From positions 3,575 to 67,574 of the forward strand of contig JACKGG010000004.1 in the NCBI GenBank assembly GCA_020632035.1: a stretch of 64,000 nucleotides of DNA, written 5' to 3'. The notes beneath the pieces were generated by a model that was given only the letters and a program-made list of their open reading frames with translations, searched no databases and was not told where the DNA came from. A program made the position numbers and the translations under genes. Position 1 is the stretch's first letter. Each line of letters starts with the position of its first letter. Positions 7,689 through 38,537 of this stretch are shown in pieces. Origin of the DNA: Candidatus Nomurabacteria bacterium (GTDB lineage Bacteria > Patescibacteriota > Minisyncoccia > Phycocordibacterales > UBA918).

Positions 7689-9629
7689 CTAGCTTTCAAG
7701 GACAGCCTTAATTCGCCGCACACCGGCAGAAGAAGATTCTTCCTTTTTAATCTTAAATGTACCACTAATGTTTTCCAGTGCTTCTACGTGGGGTCCTCCG
7801 CATAGCTCGCGCGAAAAAACTGTTCCGTCATTGCCTTTTACTGTGTAAACCTTTACTTCGTCAGGATAACGGTCCCAAAAACTGCCCTCCACAGTCGGAT
7901 CCTTCTCTGCTGTGTCCTTGCTCATCATGTCGATAGTAACCTTTCCTCCAGTTTGAATAGCTTTGTTTACCCAGGCTTCGATTTTGTCTAAAGTTTCCCG
8001 TTCGATTTTTTCAGGATGAGTGAAGTCAAAACGAAGGCGTTCCCCGGTGATATTTGAGCCAGCTTGGTGTACATGGTCTCCCAGAAAATGTCTAAGTGCA
8101 GCTAGAAGGAGGTGTGTACTAGTGTGATACTGAACCACTGTTTCAGAGTGATCAGCAAGTCCTCCTTTAAACTTTTGTTCAGCTCCTGCTCGAGACTTTT
8201 CTCGATGTTCCTCCATAAGCTTTTCAAAGCCGTCCTTGTCGACAATTAGTCCTTTCTCTTCAGCAATTTCTTCAGTTAACTCAATCGGAAAACCGTAAGT
8301 AGTAAATAAATCAAAGGCATTCTGAGCACTGATAGCTTTTTTTGTTACGGTTGATTCCTTGTCTAGAACTTTTTTACCGTCCACTATCTTGGTATTTACA
8401 TGAACCTGAAGTGAGATTTTATTAAACTGTTTGAGTCCATTTTCAAGTGTCTTGCGGAATTGCGCCTCTTCTTGAGTAATTGTTTGTTTTATTTCCTCCT
8501 CCTTATCCTTAAGATTTGTGTAATGTCCTTTGTAGGTTTGAATTACAGCTTCTGCGAGGTCAGAAAACATTCCCTCAGGAACTCCAATCATGTCAGCGTA
8601 GCGTACTGCTCTACGAAGTAGCCTCCGTACGAAATAACCTTGTTCAGTATTGCTTGGTAGTATGCCGTCTCCAATCATGAAAGTTGCTCCTCGAACATGA
8701 TCAGTCACAACTCTAAAAGCGACTAGATTATCTTCATATTTCTTTCCAGACAAGGTTTGGATTTTTTCAACCACATTCCAAAGTAAATCAACTTTAAACA
8801 TGTCATTCTCTTCTATTGCCGCTGCTGCGATACGCTCAAGACCTCCACCAAAATCAACGTTTTGCTTTGGTAGTTTTTCAAAGCCGTTTTCTGTCTTGAT
8901 GTATTCCATGAATACAGAATTCCCGATTTCAAGAAAACGTCCGCAGTCGCAGTTTGGGTGGCAGTGTTTACCAAACTTTGTGTCATGTGGAGTACCAAAA
9001 TCATAGAACACCTCACTATCAGGACCTCCTATTTCACCCACTGGCATGTTTTGAATCTTTCCAGCGCGCGTCCACCAGTTCTTACTTGCGTCGTAGTAAA
9101 AGATTCTTTCGCCTTCATTCATTCCCCTTTCACCACCCTCTTCTTCTGAGCCCATTTCAGCCACGCCAGCAGAGATACCTTTCTCAGTGAAGAGTTTCTT
9201 CCATATGTCTACAGCTTCTGTATCTTTGGGAACATTTGCTTTTTCGTCACCAATAAATGTTGTAACGTATATATTTTCTGGATTAAGTCCTACTTCGTCA
9301 GTCAAAAATGAATAGAACCAAGGAAGTTGTTCTTGTTTAAAATAGTCACCCAGTGACCAGTTTCCAAGCATTTCGAAAAAAGTAGTGTGTCGATTATCTC
9401 CCACTTCTTCTATGTCCTCAGCTCGAAAGCACTTCTGTGAGTCAGTTAGCTTGGTGCCCTTTGGGTGGGTTTCTCCCATCAGGTACGGTACAAGTGGCTG
9501 CATACCGCTACCGGTAAAAAGAGTCGTCGGGTCATTTTCTGGTACAAGAGCAGATGACGGAATAACAGCATGGCCGTTTTTGGCCATGAAATCTAGGTAT
9601 TTTTTACGAATGTCGTTGCCTTTGTTCAT
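7689..9629 (-). CDS. alaS: alanine--tRNA ligase, short form (catalytic, tRNA-recognition and editing domains; C-terminal C-Ala domain absent)
   Basis: N-terminus IRKKYLDFMAKNGHAVIPSSALVPENDPTTLFTGSGMQP matches AlaRS motif 1. An editing-domain HxxxH block is present (TSTHLLLAALRHFLGDHVHQAGS). Only 646 aa versus about 870 in typical bacteria. Confidence 0.9.
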   Translation of the reverse strand: MNKGNDIRKKYLDFMAKNGHAVIPSSALVPENDPTTLFTGSGMQPLVPYLMGETHPKGTKLTDSQKCFRAEDIEEVGDNRHTTFFEMLGNWSLGDYFKQEQLPWFYSFLTDEVGLNPENIYVTTFIGDEKANVPKDTEAVDIWKKLFTEKGISAGVAEMGSEEEGGERGMNEGERIFYYDASKNWWTRAGKIQNMPVGEIGGPDSEVFYDFGTPHDTKFGKHCHPNCDCGRFLEIGNSVFMEYIKTENGFEKLPKQNVDFGGGLERIAAAAIEENDMFKVDLLWNVVEKIQTLSGKKYEDNLVAFRVVTDHVRGATFMIGDGILPSNTEQGYFVRRLLRRAVRYADMIGVPEGMFSDLAEAVIQTYKGHYTNLKDKEEEIKQTITQEEAQFRKTLENGLKQFNKISLQVHVNTKIVDGKKVLDKESTVTKKAISAQNAFDLFTTYGFPIELTEEIAEEKGLIVDKDGFEKLMEEHREKSRAGAEQKFKGGLADHSETVVQYHTSTHLLLAALRHFLGDHVHQAGSNITGERLRFDFTHPEKIERETLDKIEAWVNKAIQTGGKVTIDMMSKDTAEKDPTVEGSFWDRYPDEVKVYTVKGNDGTVFSRELCGGPHVEALENISGTFKIKKEESSSAGVRRIKAVLES

Positions 9630-14279: not shown

Positions 14280-14480
14280 TTAGTCACCCCATTTGTTAGG
14301 GTAGATAATCACATACGTCATCCATCCAAAAACGAATGTGAGCGCTGAGTCGAACAATTTCAGATCGAATGCTTGTCCGAGCTCCTCTACGTTTACGTTG
14401 TATGTCCAAACATTATTGTTAAGGTAAACAAAAATGAAAAACATACATACAATTAAGCTGATCAGGATGCGCATACTCAC
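14280..14480 (-). CDS. small membrane protein, hypothetical
   Basis: 66 aa with one hydrophobic helix ILISLIVCMFFIFVYL. Support is weak. Confidence 0.3.
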   Translation of the reverse strand: MSMRILISLIVCMFFIFVYLNNNVWTYNVNVEELGQAFDLKLFDSALTFVFGWMTYVIIYPNKWGD

Positions 14481-24342: not shown

Positions 24343-25242
24343 CTACTGTAAATACTTATCATTGATTTCTCTTTCGAAACACCAGTGTCCAGCTTTGTAA
24401 TCCCAGTTGTTGTTCTTTTCAAGTACGGGATAAGCGTATGAGTTGTTTCGACCTAGGTCGACATCTTTTGCAAAAGTGGCGCAAATTTTGTAAGTCTTCT
24501 CACCAGTTACTTCAAAAGTGTAAGCCTCCCTACCTTCTGGAGCGGTTGGCGCTGTAAACTGACCGTAAATTTCATTAATTGATTCAGGTAGAGAGTTGTT
24601 TGTCCTGTAATAATCTTCAATTCTCCACTGCATGTCTTGCAAGTCTCCTATCATTTGGTTATCGATTTTAATCTCTCTTGCATCTGACGGAGATTGGATT
24701 TGCATAACTCCAAGTCCAACAACGACTAAAGCAATCGCACCAGCAATATAGCCAAACAAAACTGATTTCTTTTCGTTCTGCATCCAATGACCCCTAACGT
24801 CCATTAGATAATACTGGAAGGCTGCGCCAATAATCACTAAAACTGAAAGCGCCTTTAGAATAAATCTAGTTGTAATATCTCCCTCCAAGAAAAACATAAT
24901 TACAGCTACCAAATCTCCTAAAAGTACTGCCCCACCGACCAAGAGTGAAAGGTAGATAAGCCACTTAGTTAGACCAAGGTACGCATGGTCTGACGATTTA
25001 CGTCTATTATTATTTACTGTTCGGGTAAGCCATAAGTAAGTTGGAAAAAATACGACTACCATTGCGATACCAATTTTTATTCCTTCTTCAGCGCGCGATA
25101 TGTCCCATACGTTATCAGCCGCGTCCGGCATAGCCATGTTAATTAGTCCAAAGACTAAGACAATAAAAAAACTTAATGATAAATATAAGCTCGCTAGTGA
25201 GCCGAGTTGAAGCACGAAGTGCTTAGCTGTGTTGTTTTCCAT
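24343..25242 (-). CDS. polytopic membrane protein, hypothetical
   Basis: 299 aa with about six TM helices in the N-terminal two thirds, and a C-terminal soluble domain. Confidence 0.5.
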   Translation of the reverse strand: MENNTAKHFVLQLGSLASLYLSLSFFIVLVFGLINMAMPDAADNVWDISRAEEGIKIGIAMVVVFFPTYLWLTRTVNNNRRKSSDHAYLGLTKWLIYLSLLVGGAVLLGDLVAVIMFFLEGDITTRFILKALSVLVIIGAAFQYYLMDVRGHWMQNEKKSVLFGYIAGAIALVVVGLGVMQIQSPSDAREIKIDNQMIGDLQDMQWRIEDYYRTNNSLPESINEIYGQFTAPTAPEGREAYTFEVTGEKTYKICATFAKDVDLGRNNSYAYPVLEKNNNWDYKAGHWCFEREINDKYLQ

Positions 25243-25322: not shown

Positions 25323-25763
25323 TCAGGCCATCCGTGGAAACGGCGGACTCATTACATCGGTATTCCTTATGTATACATGACTGAAACCAAACGTAGAAAG
25401 ATAGTATTTTTGTAAATACTCTGCCTCACGGAGACCCGCCATGTACTCAGCCGAACCAACTTTGTAGGTTGGATAATAATCAATGTAACCTTCAATCAGA
25501 CCCTGACAGAATTTTCGATACTTAACAGAGTCCAAAATATGTTTTTCCCATATCTTGCATGCGTTTGTCGTGGGAGAAATAAAATGATTTCGACCGTTTA
25601 TTCTACTACACCAGTGCAAAAGCAAAAAGTGTCTGTATTCATGCTCAGATTCTTTTACTAAGCTTGAGTACCAGTTGCTACTGTTTTGCGCTTGCCTTAT
25701 GTATTCTTCGAAATTTGCCTCCCTAATCATGGCGACAGCTTCAGATTCTGTACGAATAAGCAT
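25323..25763 (-). CDS. hypothetical protein
   Basis: 146-aa ORF with no recognisable motif. Lies immediately downstream (on the minus strand) of the peptide islet. Confidence 0.4.
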   Translation of the reverse strand: MLIRTESEAVAMIREANFEEYIRQAQNSSNWYSSLVKESEHEYRHFLLLHWCSRINGRNHFISPTTNACKIWEKHILDSVKYRKFCQGLIEGYIDYYPTYKVGSAEYMAGLREAEYLQKYYLSTFGFSHVYIRNTDVMSPPFPRMA

Positions 25764-25990
25764 CTAATACCTTCCTCTTGATTTACTTGTAGAACAAAAC
25801 GACGCTGAATATATCACTCTTGGAACTGAAGTCAAATATACTCCCACAGTTTATACTTGTCGTGCAAATATATGTGTGGAGAAAGACGCACTAGAAAACT
25901 CTAAATCAAGCAATTAATACTATGCATAAAATTTTTGACGAATATAATTACCAAATGCAGTCAACTTACTCAGAATAAAAACCTACTTCA

Positions 25991-26016
25991 ATAAAAAAGC
26001 CACCCTTGGGTGGCTA
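25991..26016 (-). terminator. intrinsic terminator for a minus-strand transcript (hairpin AGCCACCC-TTG-GGTGGCT with the T-run on the minus strand)
   Basis: aaaaaagccacccttgggtggct lies about 30 nt past the stop of the 26045..26347 reading frame. Confidence 0.5.
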
Positions 26017-26044
26017 AATTGTGTTGCCTACTAAGGCAACAATG

Positions 26045-26347
26045 TTAGGACCAGGGCCACCATGGCCAGAAATAACGTTGGCTGCCAACTCGCCGGGAGC
26101 AGTCAACAACGGTTTCTCCGCTGCACGCAGAAACCGTTACCTCTGGTTCTGCAGATACAGCCATTTCTTGTGGTGCAGCCACCGCAAGGGAAGAAGCGGC
26201 GACTATACCCACAAGAGAAGCATCATTACTCCTTTCTTTTTCATAATGGCAATCTCCTTGTTGTGCCGTCGAAGGGTTTAGTACTGCACCAGTAGAGACG
26301 ACATCCACAGACACTAAAATTATGTCATCTTTTATAGTGAATTGCAA
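26045..26347 (-). pseudogene. frame-disturbed paralogue of the adjacent secreted-peptide gene; the open frame ends ...SACSGETVVDCSRRVGSQRYFWPWWPWS
   Basis: The 100-codon frame has no ATG (TTG at 26347). A strong SD (AAGGAG) and ATG at 26244 lie in a neighbouring frame and give MKKKGVMMLLLWV-stop. Splicing that frame onto the long one would yield a textbook signal peptide (MKKKGVMMLLL/VGIVAASSLAVAA-PQE...). A third minus-strand frame encodes a Cys-rich string (CFSCGYSRRFFPCGGCTTRNGCICRTRGNGFCVQRRNRC) without a start codon. Confidence 0.3.
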
Positions 26348-26494
26348 GTAACTTTCTTGTATGTTGGAATGAATAGGTTTATTAGGTTAAAACTAAATTA
26401 CCACACTAAGTAACAACGTCTAAACAAAAAACATAAATTTGGATCAAGTATTGCAAATCAAATATAAAGATTAAAACTATCATTACGAAGCGCA

Positions 26495-26521
26495 TAAGAA
26501 AACCACCCGCAAGAGTGGTTA
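26495..26521 (-). terminator. intrinsic terminator for the minus-strand peptide gene (hairpin AACCAC-CCGCAAGA-GTGGTT, minus-strand T-run)
   Basis: Located 28 nt downstream of the stop codon at 26549. Confidence 0.5.
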
Positions 26522-26548
26522 ATGGTGAAAGTTCCCAGAACCCGTAGA

Positions 26549-26752
26549 CTAGAAATTCTGGGGTGTAAGACCCTTTCTAGCTCTTGAGCATACTGCAACA
26601 TCTGGGTTGCAGGCCGGAGGAGGAACCCTGAACGTAATTGGTACTACTTCATCCTCCACCGCTTCTGGAGCGGTAAGGGGGCTGCAAACAAGTAATCCAA
26701 GAAGGAATATAAACCCTAGGATTACAGTACTACTTGCGATTCTTATGAACAT
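26549..26752 (-). CDS. small secreted peptide precursor (signal peptide plus about 40-aa acidic/Pro-rich peptide with one Cys-x6-Cys loop)
   Basis: The ATG at 26752 is preceded by caccAAAGGAGaaaaaac. The product is MFIRIASSTVILGFIFLLGLLVCSPLTA-PEAVEDEVVPITFRVPPPACNPDVAVCSRARKGLTPQNF. It has its own terminator. The ORF-track version is extended to an upstream in-frame Met. Confidence 0.55.
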   Translation of the reverse strand: MFIRIASSTVILGFIFLLGLLVCSPLTAPEAVEDEVVPITFRVPPPACNPDVAVCSRARKGLTPQNF

Positions 26753-26849
26753 GTTTTTTCTCCTTTGGTGACGGCTTTGCCACAGACTTCTGATACTATA
26801 ACACATATCGTTGCTATTTGCAAGCTTATTGTAATATGAAAAATTATTA

Positions 26850-26859
26850 ATGATATAAT
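26850..26859 (+). promoter_or_regulatory. extended -10 promoter element (TGaTATAAT) placed so that transcription would start at or next to the ATG at 26866 (leaderless mRNA)
   Basis: The sequence ttattaaTGaTATAATccctgtATG has a consensus extended -10 ending 7 nt before the start codon, with no SD. Confidence 0.35.
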
Positions 26860-26865
26860 CCCTGT

Positions 26866-27135
26866 ATGAAACAAGAAGATTTTAAAAAAGCGCCAAAGTT
26901 ATTTTGTGAAAGTATTAGTGTAGCCTTTACTCCAGAGTATTTCGTCATGGGACTGACCTCAGGCAATCAAGGCACAATTTACTCACTTACACCGCAACAC
27001 ACCAAAAGACTTCAGCAGTACTTAGCACATCAGGTTGAAGAATTTGAAAGCAAGCACGGCAAAATAGAAGCCAATTGGGATCCAAATATAGTAAGCCCTG
27101 TCCAAAGAGCCAATCCTCCGACTGAGTTGAGTTAA
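26866..27135 (+). CDS. DUF3467-like small protein, hypothetical
   Basis: 89 aa. ISVAFTPEYFVMGLTSGNQ...TKRLQQYLAHQVEEFESKHGKI resembles the DUF3467 small-protein family. Confidence 0.45.
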   Translation: MKQEDFKKAPKLFCESISVAFTPEYFVMGLTSGNQGTIYSLTPQHTKRLQQYLAHQVEEFESKHGKIEANWDPNIVSPVQRANPPTELS

Positions 27136-27158
27136 AAAAATCGCCCTGTTGGGCGATA
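27133..27158 (-). terminator. hairpin terminator (ATCGCCC-TGTT-GGGCGAT) with an A-run on plus and a T-run on minus
   Basis: aaaaaaatcgccctgttgggcgat sits between the convergent 26866..27135 (+) gene and the 27180..27395 (-) ORF. Confidence 0.4.
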
Positions 27159-27179
27159 ATGCGGTCGGTCACTAAGTTA

Positions 27180-27395
27180 CTACCTAGATCTTCGACCGTA
27201 GACGACATCACGTCGTATAAAGTTCATTTTTGAGTACCTATTTATGATTCTTTTTTGGGCCTCTTCATATCGCTTATCACGTTCGTAGCTTGGACCTCTG
27301 CTTATTTTCATTATTGTTTCTGCAGTTTCACAATGAACTTGCGGATTCGTAATAAAAAACACAAGTGTTTCTCGTATAGGGCAATTGAATAACAT
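27180..27395 (-). CDS. small basic hypothetical protein (likely start at the internal MKISRG, about 27311)
   Basis: Downstream of ychF on the same strand. 43-71 aa, Arg/Lys-rich. Support is weak. Confidence 0.3.
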   Translation of the reverse strand: MLFNCPIRETLVFFITNPQVHCETAETIMKISRGPSYERDKRYEEAQKRIINRYSKMNFIRRDVVYGRRSR

Positions 27396-27475
27396 GTTAG
27401 CTACTCCTATGATATGAACACCTTCTTTCTTATATCAAATTATCTTGAAAAAAGAAATACTAATGGACCTAACTT

Positions 27476-28576
27476 TTACGAATGCATGAATTCAATCACG
27501 TCTCCGTCCTTTACTATATATTCCTTTCCTTCTGTTCTGAGCTTTCCTTCATCTCTGGCTTTGGCCTTTGAGCCAGCTTTTACCAAATCTTCAAAAGCTA
27601 CTACTTGAGCGCGGATATATTTTGTTTGAAAGTCTGAGTGAATAGCTGCGCCTGCTTCTGGGCCAGTACTTCCGATTGGAACTGTCCACGCGCGAGTCTC
27701 CTTTTCACCGGTAGTGAAGTAACTCATAAGTCCGAGTCTGTGATAACAAGCCCTAATTAATGTTTCTACCCCACTATCTTGTGCACCATATTCTCGACGA
27801 AACTCTGTTTTTTCCTCATCTCCTAGGTCTCTAAGTTCGTGCTCCATTCCAGCGTCAACTATTACGTATTCTGAATCAGTTTTTTCAAAGAAAGCTAGAA
27901 GTTCTTGCCATCGATCATCATTGTGTTCGTCAAGGTTAAAAGCATCTTGCTTTTTGTTGCAGACATAAAGGAATTGCTTCATGGTCAATAAGTGTAGTCC
28001 TTTTAGAATTTTTTTCTCCTCATCTGTTATACCTAGGCTGTTGGCGAGGTGCCCAGCTTGTAAGTGACTGGCCATCTTTTCAAGTAGTGCTTTCTCTGCA
28101 ACTGCTGCCTTATCGCCTCTTTTCACATCTCGCTCAAGGTTGCTGAGTCTTTTGCTAACCGTTTCTGCATCGGCCATTATTAGTTCTAGATTGATTGTCT
28201 CTATGTCTCCCATCGGATCAACAGAACCAGATACATGATGAATATCACTATCTTCAAAAATTCTTACCACTTCAGCAATCATGTCGGTTTCGCGGATGTT
28301 GGCAAGAAACTTATTGCCAAGACCTTCACCTGCTGATGCGCCTTTTACTAATCCAGCAATATCAACAAACTCAATGATTGCTGGCAGGATTTCTTCAGAG
28401 CCTGATATCTCAGACAAAGTAGCCAATCTGCTATCGGGTACAGCAACCACACCAACCGATGGGTCGATAGTGCAAAATGGGTAATTCTCCATTGGTACAG
28501 AGTTTTTTGTTAGCGCATTAAAAAGCGTCGATTTCCCGACATTTGGCAACCCAACAATTCCGACTGATAGTGACAT
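27476..28576 (-). CDS. ychF: ribosome-binding ATPase YchF (Obg-family GTPase)
   Basis: G1 motif VGIVGLPNVGKSTLFNALT. A C-terminal TGS domain (IHSDFQTKYIRAQVVAFED). 366 aa. Confidence 0.9.
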   Translation of the reverse strand: MSLSVGIVGLPNVGKSTLFNALTKNSVPMENYPFCTIDPSVGVVAVPDSRLATLSEISGSEEILPAIIEFVDIAGLVKGASAGEGLGNKFLANIRETDMIAEVVRIFEDSDIHHVSGSVDPMGDIETINLELIMADAETVSKRLSNLERDVKRGDKAAVAEKALLEKMASHLQAGHLANSLGITDEEKKILKGLHLLTMKQFLYVCNKKQDAFNLDEHNDDRWQELLAFFEKTDSEYVIVDAGMEHELRDLGDEEKTEFRREYGAQDSGVETLIRACYHRLGLMSYFTTGEKETRAWTVPIGSTGPEAGAAIHSDFQTKYIRAQVVAFEDLVKAGSKAKARDEGKLRTEGKEYIVKDGDVIEFMHS

Positions 28577-29550: not shown

Positions 29551-29617
29551 TCATGAATAATAACACGGCGAATTTTGATATAGAAAAAGACGCACTACTT
29601 ACATGAAGTAGTGCGTC

Positions 29618-29884
29618 TTATTTGACAACCACCCTAGGTTCATCACATTTCGAATTATATTCGAAACTATCATTAATGAAACCAGAGGAAGTAGTTTTCG
29701 ATCTTGCTTTAGCTTTTATCTCCACCTTGGAGCCAGCTGAACAATTGATAGGCATTTGCCTAGTTAAGTTCATCTGAGCTTTAGCAATCGACTGAGCAAC
29801 ACCAGGAATGTCACTGCTGACATGCCAATCAGTGTAGCTGCAGCCAGCCAAGAGTATCGTAGAGAGTACGACTACTTGGAACAC
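29618..29884 (-). CDS. small lipoprotein, hypothetical
   Basis: Lipobox LLAGC at the end of the signal peptide (MFQVVVLSTILLAGCS). 88 aa. Confidence 0.5.
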   Translation of the reverse strand: MFQVVVLSTILLAGCSYTDWHVSSDIPGVAQSIAKAQMNLTRQMPINCSAGSKVEIKAKARSKTTSSGFINDSFEYNSKCDEPRVVVK

Positions 29885-30186
29885 TTGTGTACCTTTGCGG
29901 CACTAGCATTGTAGTCGTAAGTTACGTTACCGTTTTTATCACGCAGTTCTGCAGAACTGGTGATTGTTGGGTCCTGTACAGTTGCCGGTGTGCCGTTGGT
30001 TGAACCACAACCGTTGATATCCATGGCAGAGCCAAGGATAGTTGAAGCGGCCGGTCCAAACTGAGCACCGCGTGAAGTTGCAGAAGCCAACGTTGGAGCA
30101 TCAGCTCTTTCGTCGATTCCTGCAGACATCATGCAACCCTGGAGTGAAGCCAAGCAAGTAACAACTAGCATTATTTTAATGTTCAT
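29872..30186 (-). CDS. small lipoprotein, hypothetical (Gly/Ala/Ser/Thr-rich)
   Basis: Signal peptide with lipobox LQGC (MLVVTCLASLQGCMM). 104 aa. The ATG is preceded by GGAGGG. Confidence 0.5.
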   Translation of the reverse strand: MNIKIMLVVTCLASLQGCMMSAGIDERADAPTLASATSRGAQFGPAASTILGSAMDINGCGSTNGTPATVQDPTITSSAELRDKNGNVTYDYNASAAKVHKCSK

Positions 30187-30305
30187 TTCAATGCCCTCCG
30201 GGGCTATGAATTCGAGAGAGCGAATGCCCTCCTCACCAACTTATATTATACACAAAACTAGTAAAAAGTCAAGCTGGCAGGTTACTTTAGTAGCTTTAAA
30301 TAGCT

Positions 30306-30887
30306 TTATCTTGCTGCTTTACCGAGAGCTTGTACTTCTTTCATCCATTTTGCTCGGACTGAATCGTCTACCCTTTCGCAGGGACCGAAGCTAGATACTT
30401 GAGTTTTAAGGCCAGCGAATTCGAGAATTCCGTACTGGATTTCGTTGGTGTAGTCACCAAATTGCCACCAGGTTTTGAATGGACTATGGGAGCCTGACAA
30501 GATAAACACTCTAGCGGTCTTCCCTTTTAAGTGTTTCTCAATTTTTTTAGTCTGCTTATTGAAGTTGAAAGCAAAACCAGGAAGCCAGATTCGGTCGAAA
30601 AGACCTTTAAGTAAAGCAGGCATGGTACACCACCAGTTTGGGTAGCCAATAACTAAGTGATCACATTCGGTAACTGCTTGTTGGAAAGTTATTAGGTCAG
30701 GTTCTAGTTGTTGAATTTCTTTGTACCCCTTGTGTAGTATCGGGTCAAAGTTCATTTCGCCTAGGTTAAAGCGACGCACTTCATGTCCAGCATCTTCGGC
30801 AGCTGTTTGGTATTGGTCAAGTACTCCTCCAGTAAATGAGTCTGCATCTGGGTGACCACAAAGGATGACAATTTTTTTAGTATTCAT
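30306..30887 (-). CDS. flavodoxin-like-fold NAD(P)H-dependent oxidoreductase (Flavodoxin_2 / NAD(P)H:quinone oxidoreductase family)
   Basis: KIVILCGHPDADSFTGGVLDQYQTAAEDAGHEVRRFNL matches the N-terminal FMN-binding block of the MdaB/KefF/NQO-type flavodoxin-like proteins. Confidence 0.65.
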   Translation of the reverse strand: MNTKKIVILCGHPDADSFTGGVLDQYQTAAEDAGHEVRRFNLGEMNFDPILHKGYKEIQQLEPDLITFQQAVTECDHLVIGYPNWWCTMPALLKGLFDRIWLPGFAFNFNKQTKKIEKHLKGKTARVFILSGSHSPFKTWWQFGDYTNEIQYGILEFAGLKTQVSSFGPCERVDDSVRAKWMKEVQALGKAAR

Positions 30888-37870: not shown

Positions 37871-37873
37871 TAG

Positions 37874-37946
37874 TGGACTCTAGCGGACTTGAACCGCTCG
37901 CCTCTTCCATGCCATGGAAGCGCTCTACCGGATGAGCTAAGAGCCC
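37874..37946 (-). tRNA. tRNA-Ala (anticodon GGC), 73 nt, CCA not encoded
   Basis: The reverse complement folds into a cloverleaf. Acceptor stem GGGCTCT/AGAGTCC includes the G3:U70 AlaRS identity pair. D stem GCTC/GAGC. Anticodon stem CTTCC/GGAAG with loop ATGGCAT. T stem AGCGG/CCGCT with loop TTCAAGT. Discriminator A. Confidence 0.75.
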
Positions 37947-38477: not shown

Positions 38478-38537
38478 ACTTGAACCCGCTACCTCCTCAG
38501 TGCAAATGAGGCGCTCTACCAGATGAGCTACGAGCCC
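38478..38537 (-). tRNA. tRNA-Ala (anticodon UGC), nucleotides 1-60 only (5' acceptor strand through T-loop); the matching 3' segment is displaced into the tandem repeats, so this is a probable disrupted gene
   Basis: Reverse complement: GGGCTCG-TA-GCTC-ATCTGGTA-GAGC-G-CCTCA-TTTGCAC-TGAGG-AGGTA-GCGGG-TTCAAGT. After that the sequence diverges (TGAAGGCG...) instead of giving the 3' T-stem strand. Valid 3' partners (CCTGT-CGAGTCC-A, with two G:U pairs in the T stem and G3:U70) occur at 38008..38024 and 38209..38225. Confidence 0.55.

Follow-up and report, generated by a model that had tools for sequence, protein, structure and literature searches.

A candidate strain-specific orphan gene for a small, putatively membrane-anchored peptide in a Candidatus Nomurabacteria bacterium

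Introduction

Small single-pass membrane proteins, including peptides held in the membrane by a signal anchor that is never cleaved, constitute an established general class in bacteria. Other short bacterial peptides are secreted through the Sec pathway; enterocin P and lactococcin 972, for instance, are bacteriocins that carry a Sec signal and have no double-glycine leader. Among host-defence peptides built around a single disulfide loop, thanatin possesses a C-x6-C ring; such peptides are eukaryotic and strongly cationic.

Herein, we describe an ORF of 67 codons, termed pep1, within a 64,000-nt stretch of DNA from a Candidatus Nomurabacteria bacterium (Patescibacteriota), hereafter referred to as the window. 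With respect to the first of the above classes, pep1 is similar in its length (67 aa), in its one hydrophobic N-terminal helix after a positive start, in its short polar tail, and in its free-standing gene; it has no sequence relationship to any small membrane protein described to date. In common with Sec-dependent secreted peptides and class II bacteriocins, pep1 has a Sec-type signal, a short tail region, and possibly a single disulfide, but it differs from them in that Pro occupies position +1 of the sole plausible cleavage site, the mature region is acidic to neutral overall, and both an immunity gene and homology are lacking. It also has the C-x6-C ring size of thanatin, with a basic stretch next to the loop; however, pep1 is bacterial, not cationic, and derived from a different precursor, with the resemblance being one of ring size only. 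pep1, an orphan, falls into the broad category of small hypothetical proteins that bear a signal or an anchor.

Results

All of the parts of a self-contained unit, i.e., a promoter-like site, a Shine-Dalgarno (SD) sequence, the ORF, and a terminator, were located for pep1 on the minus strand (Table 1), in agreement with an earlier note on this DNA that had described an intact gene with its own signals. The AAAGGAG motif proposed therein to lie at ideal spacing before the start codon is present, as is the hairpin plus T-run placed 28 nt past the stop codon; the latter reads AACCACTC-TTGC-GGGTGGTT followed by TTCTTAT (26520..26501). Terminator-like sites number 7 in 2.4 kb versus 1.8 ± 1.1 in shuffled sequences. 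For promoter-like sites, the corresponding values are 10 in 2.4 kb and 6.0 ± 2.6, meaning that the promoter match of pep1 is at chance level. The available ORF call for this locus is longer (85 aa), begins at ATG 26806, and is stored as such in public databases (P0001). As this ATG lies upstream of the −10 box and is not preceded by an SD sequence, the earlier view of the call as over-extended at its N-terminus is reasonable. The spacing of the putative Cys-x6-Cys loop was likewise confirmed, with Cys48 encoded at 26611..26609 and Cys55 at 26590..26588; a third Cys residue (Cys23) falls within the hydrophobic segment.

Table 1. Coordinates of the pep1 unit, the second unit, and the DNA insert that carries them (window numbering)
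Feature	Position	Strand	Details or basis
pep1 ORF, 67 codons	26549..26752 (including stop)	-	ATG 26752..26750, TAG 26551..26549; product MFIRIASSTVILGFIFLLGLLVCSPLTAPEAVEDEVVPITFRVPPPACNPDVAVCSRARKGLTPQNF
pep1 Shine-Dalgarno AAAGGAG	26766..26760	-	7-nt spacer to the ATG
pep1 codons 1-28	26669..26752	-	MFIR, hydrophobic core of 18-20 residues, CSPLTA; signal peptide or signal anchor
pep1 Cys48-x6-Cys55 (ACNPDVAVCSR)	26588..26611	-	Candidate disulfide loop, read from sequence
pep1 intrinsic-terminator-like hairpin	26492..26520	-	8 pairs (4 G-C), loop of 4, T-rich tail
pep1 promoter-like TTGCAA-17-TATAGT, extended -10 TG	26823..26795	-	Consensus match only; predicted start near 26788
Strain-specific DNA (about 980 nt) with pep1 and second unit	25857..26838	.	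blastn and junction alignment versus L001
Second unit	25995..26347	-	Promoter-like site, SD, broken frame, terminator, stable RNA fold
Second-unit promoter-like TTGCAA-17-CATAAT with TG	26347..26319	-	Consensus match
Second-unit SD AAGGAG	26259..26254	-	9 nt before ATG 26244
Second-unit first frame	ATG 26244, stop 26205..26203	-	Sequence: MKKKGVMMLLLWV, then stop
Second-unit -1 frame	Stop 26047..26045	-	Sequence: VGIVAASSLAVAAPQEMAVSAEPEVTVSACSGETVVDCSRRVGSQRYFWPWWPWS, then stop
Second-unit strong terminator	26015..25998	-	Terminator scan

The pep1 unit resides on strain-specific DNA inserted in the divergent gap between the gene for a DUF3467 protein (26866..27135, plus strand) and that for a 146-aa protein (25323..25763, minus strand). 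This insert is missing from the closest relative, a 'Candidatus Nomurabacteria' MAG (L001), which is collinear with the window at 90–93% DNA identity on either side and whose positions 8061 and 8090 align with 26854 and 25838 of the window, respectively. The YchF protein is 95% identical in this MAG and 73–87% identical in 79 other Patescibacteria/Paceibacteria genomes. Immediate neighbours of pep1 encode YchF, the DUF3467 protein, the 146-aa unknown protein, a DUF5671 protein, and an SppA-like S49 peptidase, with LeuRS, MnmA, YceG, a sigma factor, and an HlyD/AcrB pair encoded farther out. The neighbours are housekeeping or conserved unknown genes, and the earlier statement that no processing or transport genes adjoin pep1 holds; the nearest transporter (the HlyD/AcrB pair), at a distance of about 5 kb, is shared with the insert-less L001.

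Of 80 relatives (L001–L080), most have 60–100 nt between the DUF3467 and DUF5671 genes, and the others have 0.3–2.6 kb of unrelated cargo there; the corresponding window intervals are 26854..27135 and 24343..25242. This cargo encodes HIT-like, endonuclease/exonuclease/phosphatase-like, HD-domain, or GIY-YIG-like proteins, or a very acidic secreted protein of ~320 aa; given such differences between relatives, the DUF3467–DUF5671 gap is an insertion hot spot. The ~320-aa proteins (in L002, L003, L004, L052, and L059) occupy the same position as pep1 and have both a signal peptide and, right after it, a Cys loop (A-C-S-x10-11-C); unlike pep1, they are about 320 aa long and very acidic. Derivation of the pep1 insert from a decayed gene of this type was considered and rejected, as neither tblastn nor an HMM of the five proteins against the six frames revealed any residual similarity.

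With respect to the origin of the insert, blastn against phage and plasmid collections gave no match, nor did PHROG and PADLOC searches for a phage or defence provenance, and no other copy was detected in the window or in the 80 related loci. A mobile-element identity was rejected. The sole candidate for terminal repeats, an inverted pair of 14 nt (86%) close to the insert ends, does not exceed chance level, and target duplication is absent from the junction alignment against L001. The pep1 DNA recurs at 100% identity in contig L081 of SRR7638766, an independent Logan assembly, which counts in favour of the gene, and a JGI metagenome contig (L082) matches the window at 99.8% identity from the last pep1 bases into the 146-aa gene.

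The absence of the insert from L001 would be expected were pep1 a spurious or relic ORF, i.e., were the insert recently acquired or decaying, the frame devoid of a functional product, and any transcript non-coding or junk. We regard this alternative as unlikely, albeit far from negligible, and the ORF statistics bear on it in both directions. Across the whole window, AGGAG is positioned 4–10 nt upstream of 4 of 393 ATGs with at least 60 open codons, near the 2.3 expected and in line with a chance ORF, and the GC-richer stretch harbouring pep1 (0.46–0.50 vs. about 0.40) would contain fewer chance stops. In the gaps between long genes, 3 of 36 ATG-ORFs (at least 50 open codons) display the same arrangement, versus an expectation of about 0.2 derived from the AGGAG motif frequency. 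Of 444 ATG-ORFs, 18 passed a test for a signal-like N-terminus that was written after the sequence had been seen (a positive start, then 15 uncharged residues with a mean Kyte-Doolittle value of at least 2.0), and almost all of the 18 are starts or internal Met residues of real long genes; the best 15-residue window of pep1 has a mean of 2.87. As chance ORFs in the window seldom have either the SD sequence or the signal-like N-terminus, pep1 is more likely than not to be a real gene, and the conjunction of a strong, ideally spaced SD, such an N-terminus, an otherwise empty gap, and a nearby terminator is difficult to attribute to chance. Moreover, GC content falls to 28% beyond the terminator, and this drop, together with the closeness of the terminator, argues against pep1 being the head of a longer broken gene. 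On balance, pep1 is probably a real translated gene.

Codon usage weighs against this conclusion. When scored with a 3-periodic Markov model for which 40 host genes served as the training set, pep1 reached −0.10 per codon (true-gene windows, 0.17 ± 0.06; shadow ORFs, which are chance ORFs in the other frames of real genes, −0.15 ± 0.10). It thus sits under all 231 true-gene windows and within the shadow-ORF distribution, as a spurious ORF would, and one frame antisense to pep1 scores higher still (−0.03). Other accessory genes of this region also score low (−0.02 to −0.03), indicating that the test separates non-core genes poorly. The initiation signal is itself atypical; only about 1 in 5 confident genes in the window has any SD-like motif, with most leaders being AT-rich, and since about four in five have none, the strong SD of pep1 is atypical of this host, possibly as a sign of foreign DNA.

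Three ATG-initiated ORFs of 64–71 aa in the window are led by AGGAG (starts at 26752, 27395, and 14474), and all are intergenic and either orphan or fast-evolving. Besides pep1, these are orf71 (27180..27395), which has a 27%-identical homologue at the matching position in L001, and orf64 (14280..14474), for which the only database match was itself. The diverged homologue of orf71 reveals that small SD-led ORFs can be real as well as fast-evolving.

Searches for pep1 relatives recovered only pep1 itself in a word-indexed search of 5.8 billion clusters, and only itself plus P0002 in an exhaustive HMMER search of 1.84 billion representatives; the latter hit, to a 1538-aa repeat protein, was rejected as an artefact of a score summed over four weak repeats. 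Over the exhaustive searches as a whole (about 15 billion proteins), pep1 was the sole match. No matches were obtained (i) in back-translated scans of metagenome and viral contigs, (ii) by tblastn against the 80 related loci, or (iii) in Pfam, NCBIfam, PHROGs, and PADLOC. A lack of homologues with a conserved Cys pair had been named in the earlier note, alongside a lack of transcription, as counting against the gene; in the databases searched there was no such homologue, nor any homologue at all. Self-matches of this kind favour a spurious ORF, and with no homologues there is neither a conservation signal nor a dN/dS value for pep1.

For the pep1 product, AlphaFold2 in single-sequence mode predicts a helix across residues 2–23 (pLDDT 85–91), with the remainder disordered. 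The description of its N-terminus as a "textbook" signal peptide stands in part. The n/h/c layout is Sec-like, with MFIR followed by IASSTVILGFIFLLGLLV and with small or aliphatic residues at −3 and −1 (L26-T27-A28), and the predicted helix covers the expected segment. The cleavage site does not conform; in LTA↓PEA, Pro29 directly follows Ala28, and the alternative sites fail as well, with Pro at +1 in VCS↓P and Pro at −3 in PEA↓V. According to PMC10269814, which refers to Barkocy-Gallagher & Bassford 1992 and to Nilsson & von Heijne 1992, signal peptidase I needs a P1' residue other than Pro. Nor is a lipobox ([LVI][ASTVI][GAS]C) present, as pep1 reads L-L-V-C23, in which Val at −1 is disallowed; by contrast, the ORF at 29872..30186 reads L-Q-G-C, with Gly as the required small residue at −1. 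Pro29 at +1 thus renders the free 39-aa mature peptide proposed earlier doubtful and a membrane-anchored peptide more likely. As judged from its sequence, the most likely fate of pep1 would be that of an uncleaved signal anchor with the N-terminus inside and about 40 residues outside.

Release of the 39-mer, with a bacteriocin or signalling role, would require either that the host peptidase accept Pro at +1 or that a different protease carry out the cut. In such a scenario, a Sec-exported precursor would be cut after Ala28 to give a soluble 39-residue disulfide-loop signal or bacteriocin-like toxin, as might be suggested by the Sec-like n, h, and c regions (including L-T-A at −3 to −1), by the free-standing nature of the unit, and by the Cys-x6-Cys loop with the basic tail after it. 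We nonetheless deem it improbable. In addition to the block to signal peptidase I imposed by Pro at +1, the region after Ala28 has an acidic, proline-rich first half before A-C-NPDVAV-C-S-R-A-R-K. With 5 acidic and 4 basic residues, the predicted 39-mer has a net charge near −1 and, unlike cationic antimicrobial peptides, is not cationic. Neither a double-glycine leader nor a YGNGV box occurs in the 67 aa; no immunity, ABC-transporter, or modification genes were found near pep1; and the family and homologue searches above yielded neither a database match nor a relative that keeps the Cys pair. No finding supports the bacteriocin-like or signalling function put forward earlier.

About 200 nt downstream of pep1, on the same strand, the insert contains a second unit (pep2) with a GC content of 0.55 versus about 0.40. 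The pep2 frame is broken. Its −1 frame encodes the rest of a signal peptide and then ACSGETVVDCSRR...WPWWPWS; if joined, the two frames would specify a second signal-peptide protein with A-C-x7-C-S-R. Codons 2–3 read G_AAA_AAG at 26242..26236, which resembles the classical −1 slippery heptamer A_AAA_AAG, and WPWWPW in the tail is the core motif of indolicidin. As the frame break is also found in the independent JGI contig L082, it is not an assembly error. The broken pep2 frame hints that the insert may be decaying and, being present in two independent assemblies, adds to the case for pep1 as a spurious or relic ORF.

The second unit is further distinguished by its predicted RNA fold. Over 321 nt, folding energy was −130.2 kcal/mol, compared to −101.4 ± 4.9 kcal/mol for shuffled sequences (z = −5.9), while a 223-nt core, whose closing helix takes up the SD and ATG of the unit itself, gave z = −5.0. 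The opposite strand is less stable (z = −4.0), and this stretch ranked top among 240 windows folded across 12 kb. The pep1 mRNA was also considered as a structured RNA and rejected, its z-score being only −1.8. No credible Rfam family was detected in 25700..27500, using either gathering thresholds or E ≤ 5. The second unit is a candidate new structured RNA or very structured mRNA; more broadly, it could represent a pseudogene, a gene whose expression depends on frameshifting, or a structured RNA. Structured yet frame-broken, it is a more unusual object than pep1.

Any kinship between the two units is suggestive but not significant on present similarity. The full-length pep1/pep2 alignment is better than those of shuffled sequences (p = 0.002), driven by the hydrophobic segments, whereas for the mature parts alone p = 0.08. 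The motif AC-x6-7-CSR, which was defined post hoc, occurs three times in 1.84 million six-frame residues, with two of the occurrences on the insert. A metagenome scan with pep2 recovered nothing, and as the known JGI contig was missed too, this is a weak negative.

Two further readings take the units together. In one, the pair would form a module akin to type I toxin–antitoxin systems, with pep1 as a membrane-damaging toxin and the downstream RNA as either its regulator or a second, self-repressed toxin mRNA. The small size and one hydrophobic helix of pep1, the strong fold of the adjoining 320-nt stretch with its SD and ATG buried in the closing helix, and the presence of both units on one strain-specific insert would suit such a module. 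We consider it highly improbable, however, since (i) there is no meaningful complementarity between the two transcripts, with the best match being 12 nt within the promoter of the second unit and hence outside its transcript, (ii) the units are on the same strand and do not overlap, (iii) pep1, at 67 aa and with a polar tail of 40 residues, does not resemble typical type I toxins, and (iv) no opposite-strand promoter-like site lies inside the pep1 unit.

In the other reading, which we would call distinctly improbable, the insert is an undescribed two-unit accessory module, with the pair supplying strain-specific surface peptides for an episymbiotic lifestyle. As a part of this scheme, pep1 and pep2 would be tandem, distantly related genes sharing the order TTGCAA-17-nATAnT with TG, AAGGAG, signal peptide, acidic linker, A-C-x6/7-C-S-R, basic or Trp-rich tail, and terminator. 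As a further part, pep2 would be made only through −1 frameshifting at G_AAA_AAG within the stable fold, or else would have turned into a structured regulatory RNA.

Discussion

Our preferred interpretation, in which confidence and doubt are about evenly matched, is that pep1 is a genuine strain-specific orphan gene for a small membrane-inserted peptide that is most likely anchored and not released. We infer its expression, membrane insertion, topology, non-cleavage, disulfide, and surface role along the following lines. Transcription from its own sigma-70-like promoter would produce a monocistronic mRNA of roughly 290 nt that ends at the hairpin and T-run, and translation would start from the AAAGGAG site. 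Residues 1–23, positive and then hydrophobic, would engage the Sec/YidC machinery and span the membrane with the N-terminus inside. Because the sole AXA-like site (L-T-A, residues 26–28) precedes Pro29, signal peptidase I probably could not cut, leaving a type-II signal-anchored protein. A disordered tail of about 40 residues, acidic and proline-rich and then basic, would thus be exposed outside the cell, where Cys48 and Cys55 could close an 8-residue ring. As it is carried on ~1 kb of accessory DNA in a hot spot where related Patescibacteria have different cargo, pep1 is best viewed as belonging to a set of small envelope or surface proteins that turn over quickly in this lineage.

If real, pep1 adds one more strain-specific small envelope peptide to the repertoire of an ultra-small, host-dependent bacterium, and it would exemplify the way in which small exported proteins are swapped between close relatives at intergenic hot spots of Patescibacteria; the small exported proteins of such hot spots are candidates for host recognition. 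Taken by itself, pep1 opens no question of long standing. In practice, it is of use for testing how small orphan genes are called, and it cautions that a textbook-looking signal peptide may hide a Pro residue at +1 that alters the predicted product.

Elsewhere in the window, the interval between a flavodoxin-like gene and the SppA gene (29601..30317; 4384..5063 in L001) contains different small lipoprotein-like ORFs in the two genomes, i.e., one of 104 aa with LQGC in the window versus two in L001, of 99 and 125 aa, with LSGC and CGGC. The DNA of the interval is unalignable between the window and L001, while its flanks are 70–82% identical; the differing ORFs thus indicate turnover of small exported proteins. 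The hairpin ATCGCCC-AACA-GGGCGAT with T-runs (27140..27157), which separates the DUF3467 gene (plus strand) from the convergent orf71 (minus strand), is probably a bidirectional terminator. Lastly, an Rfam call for a second tRNA, of only 57 nt (38481..38537, minus strand), scored 35.2 bits, above the gathering score, and was not reported by ARAGORN; located about 500 nt from tRNA-Ala (37873..37946), it may represent a truncated or unusual tRNA.
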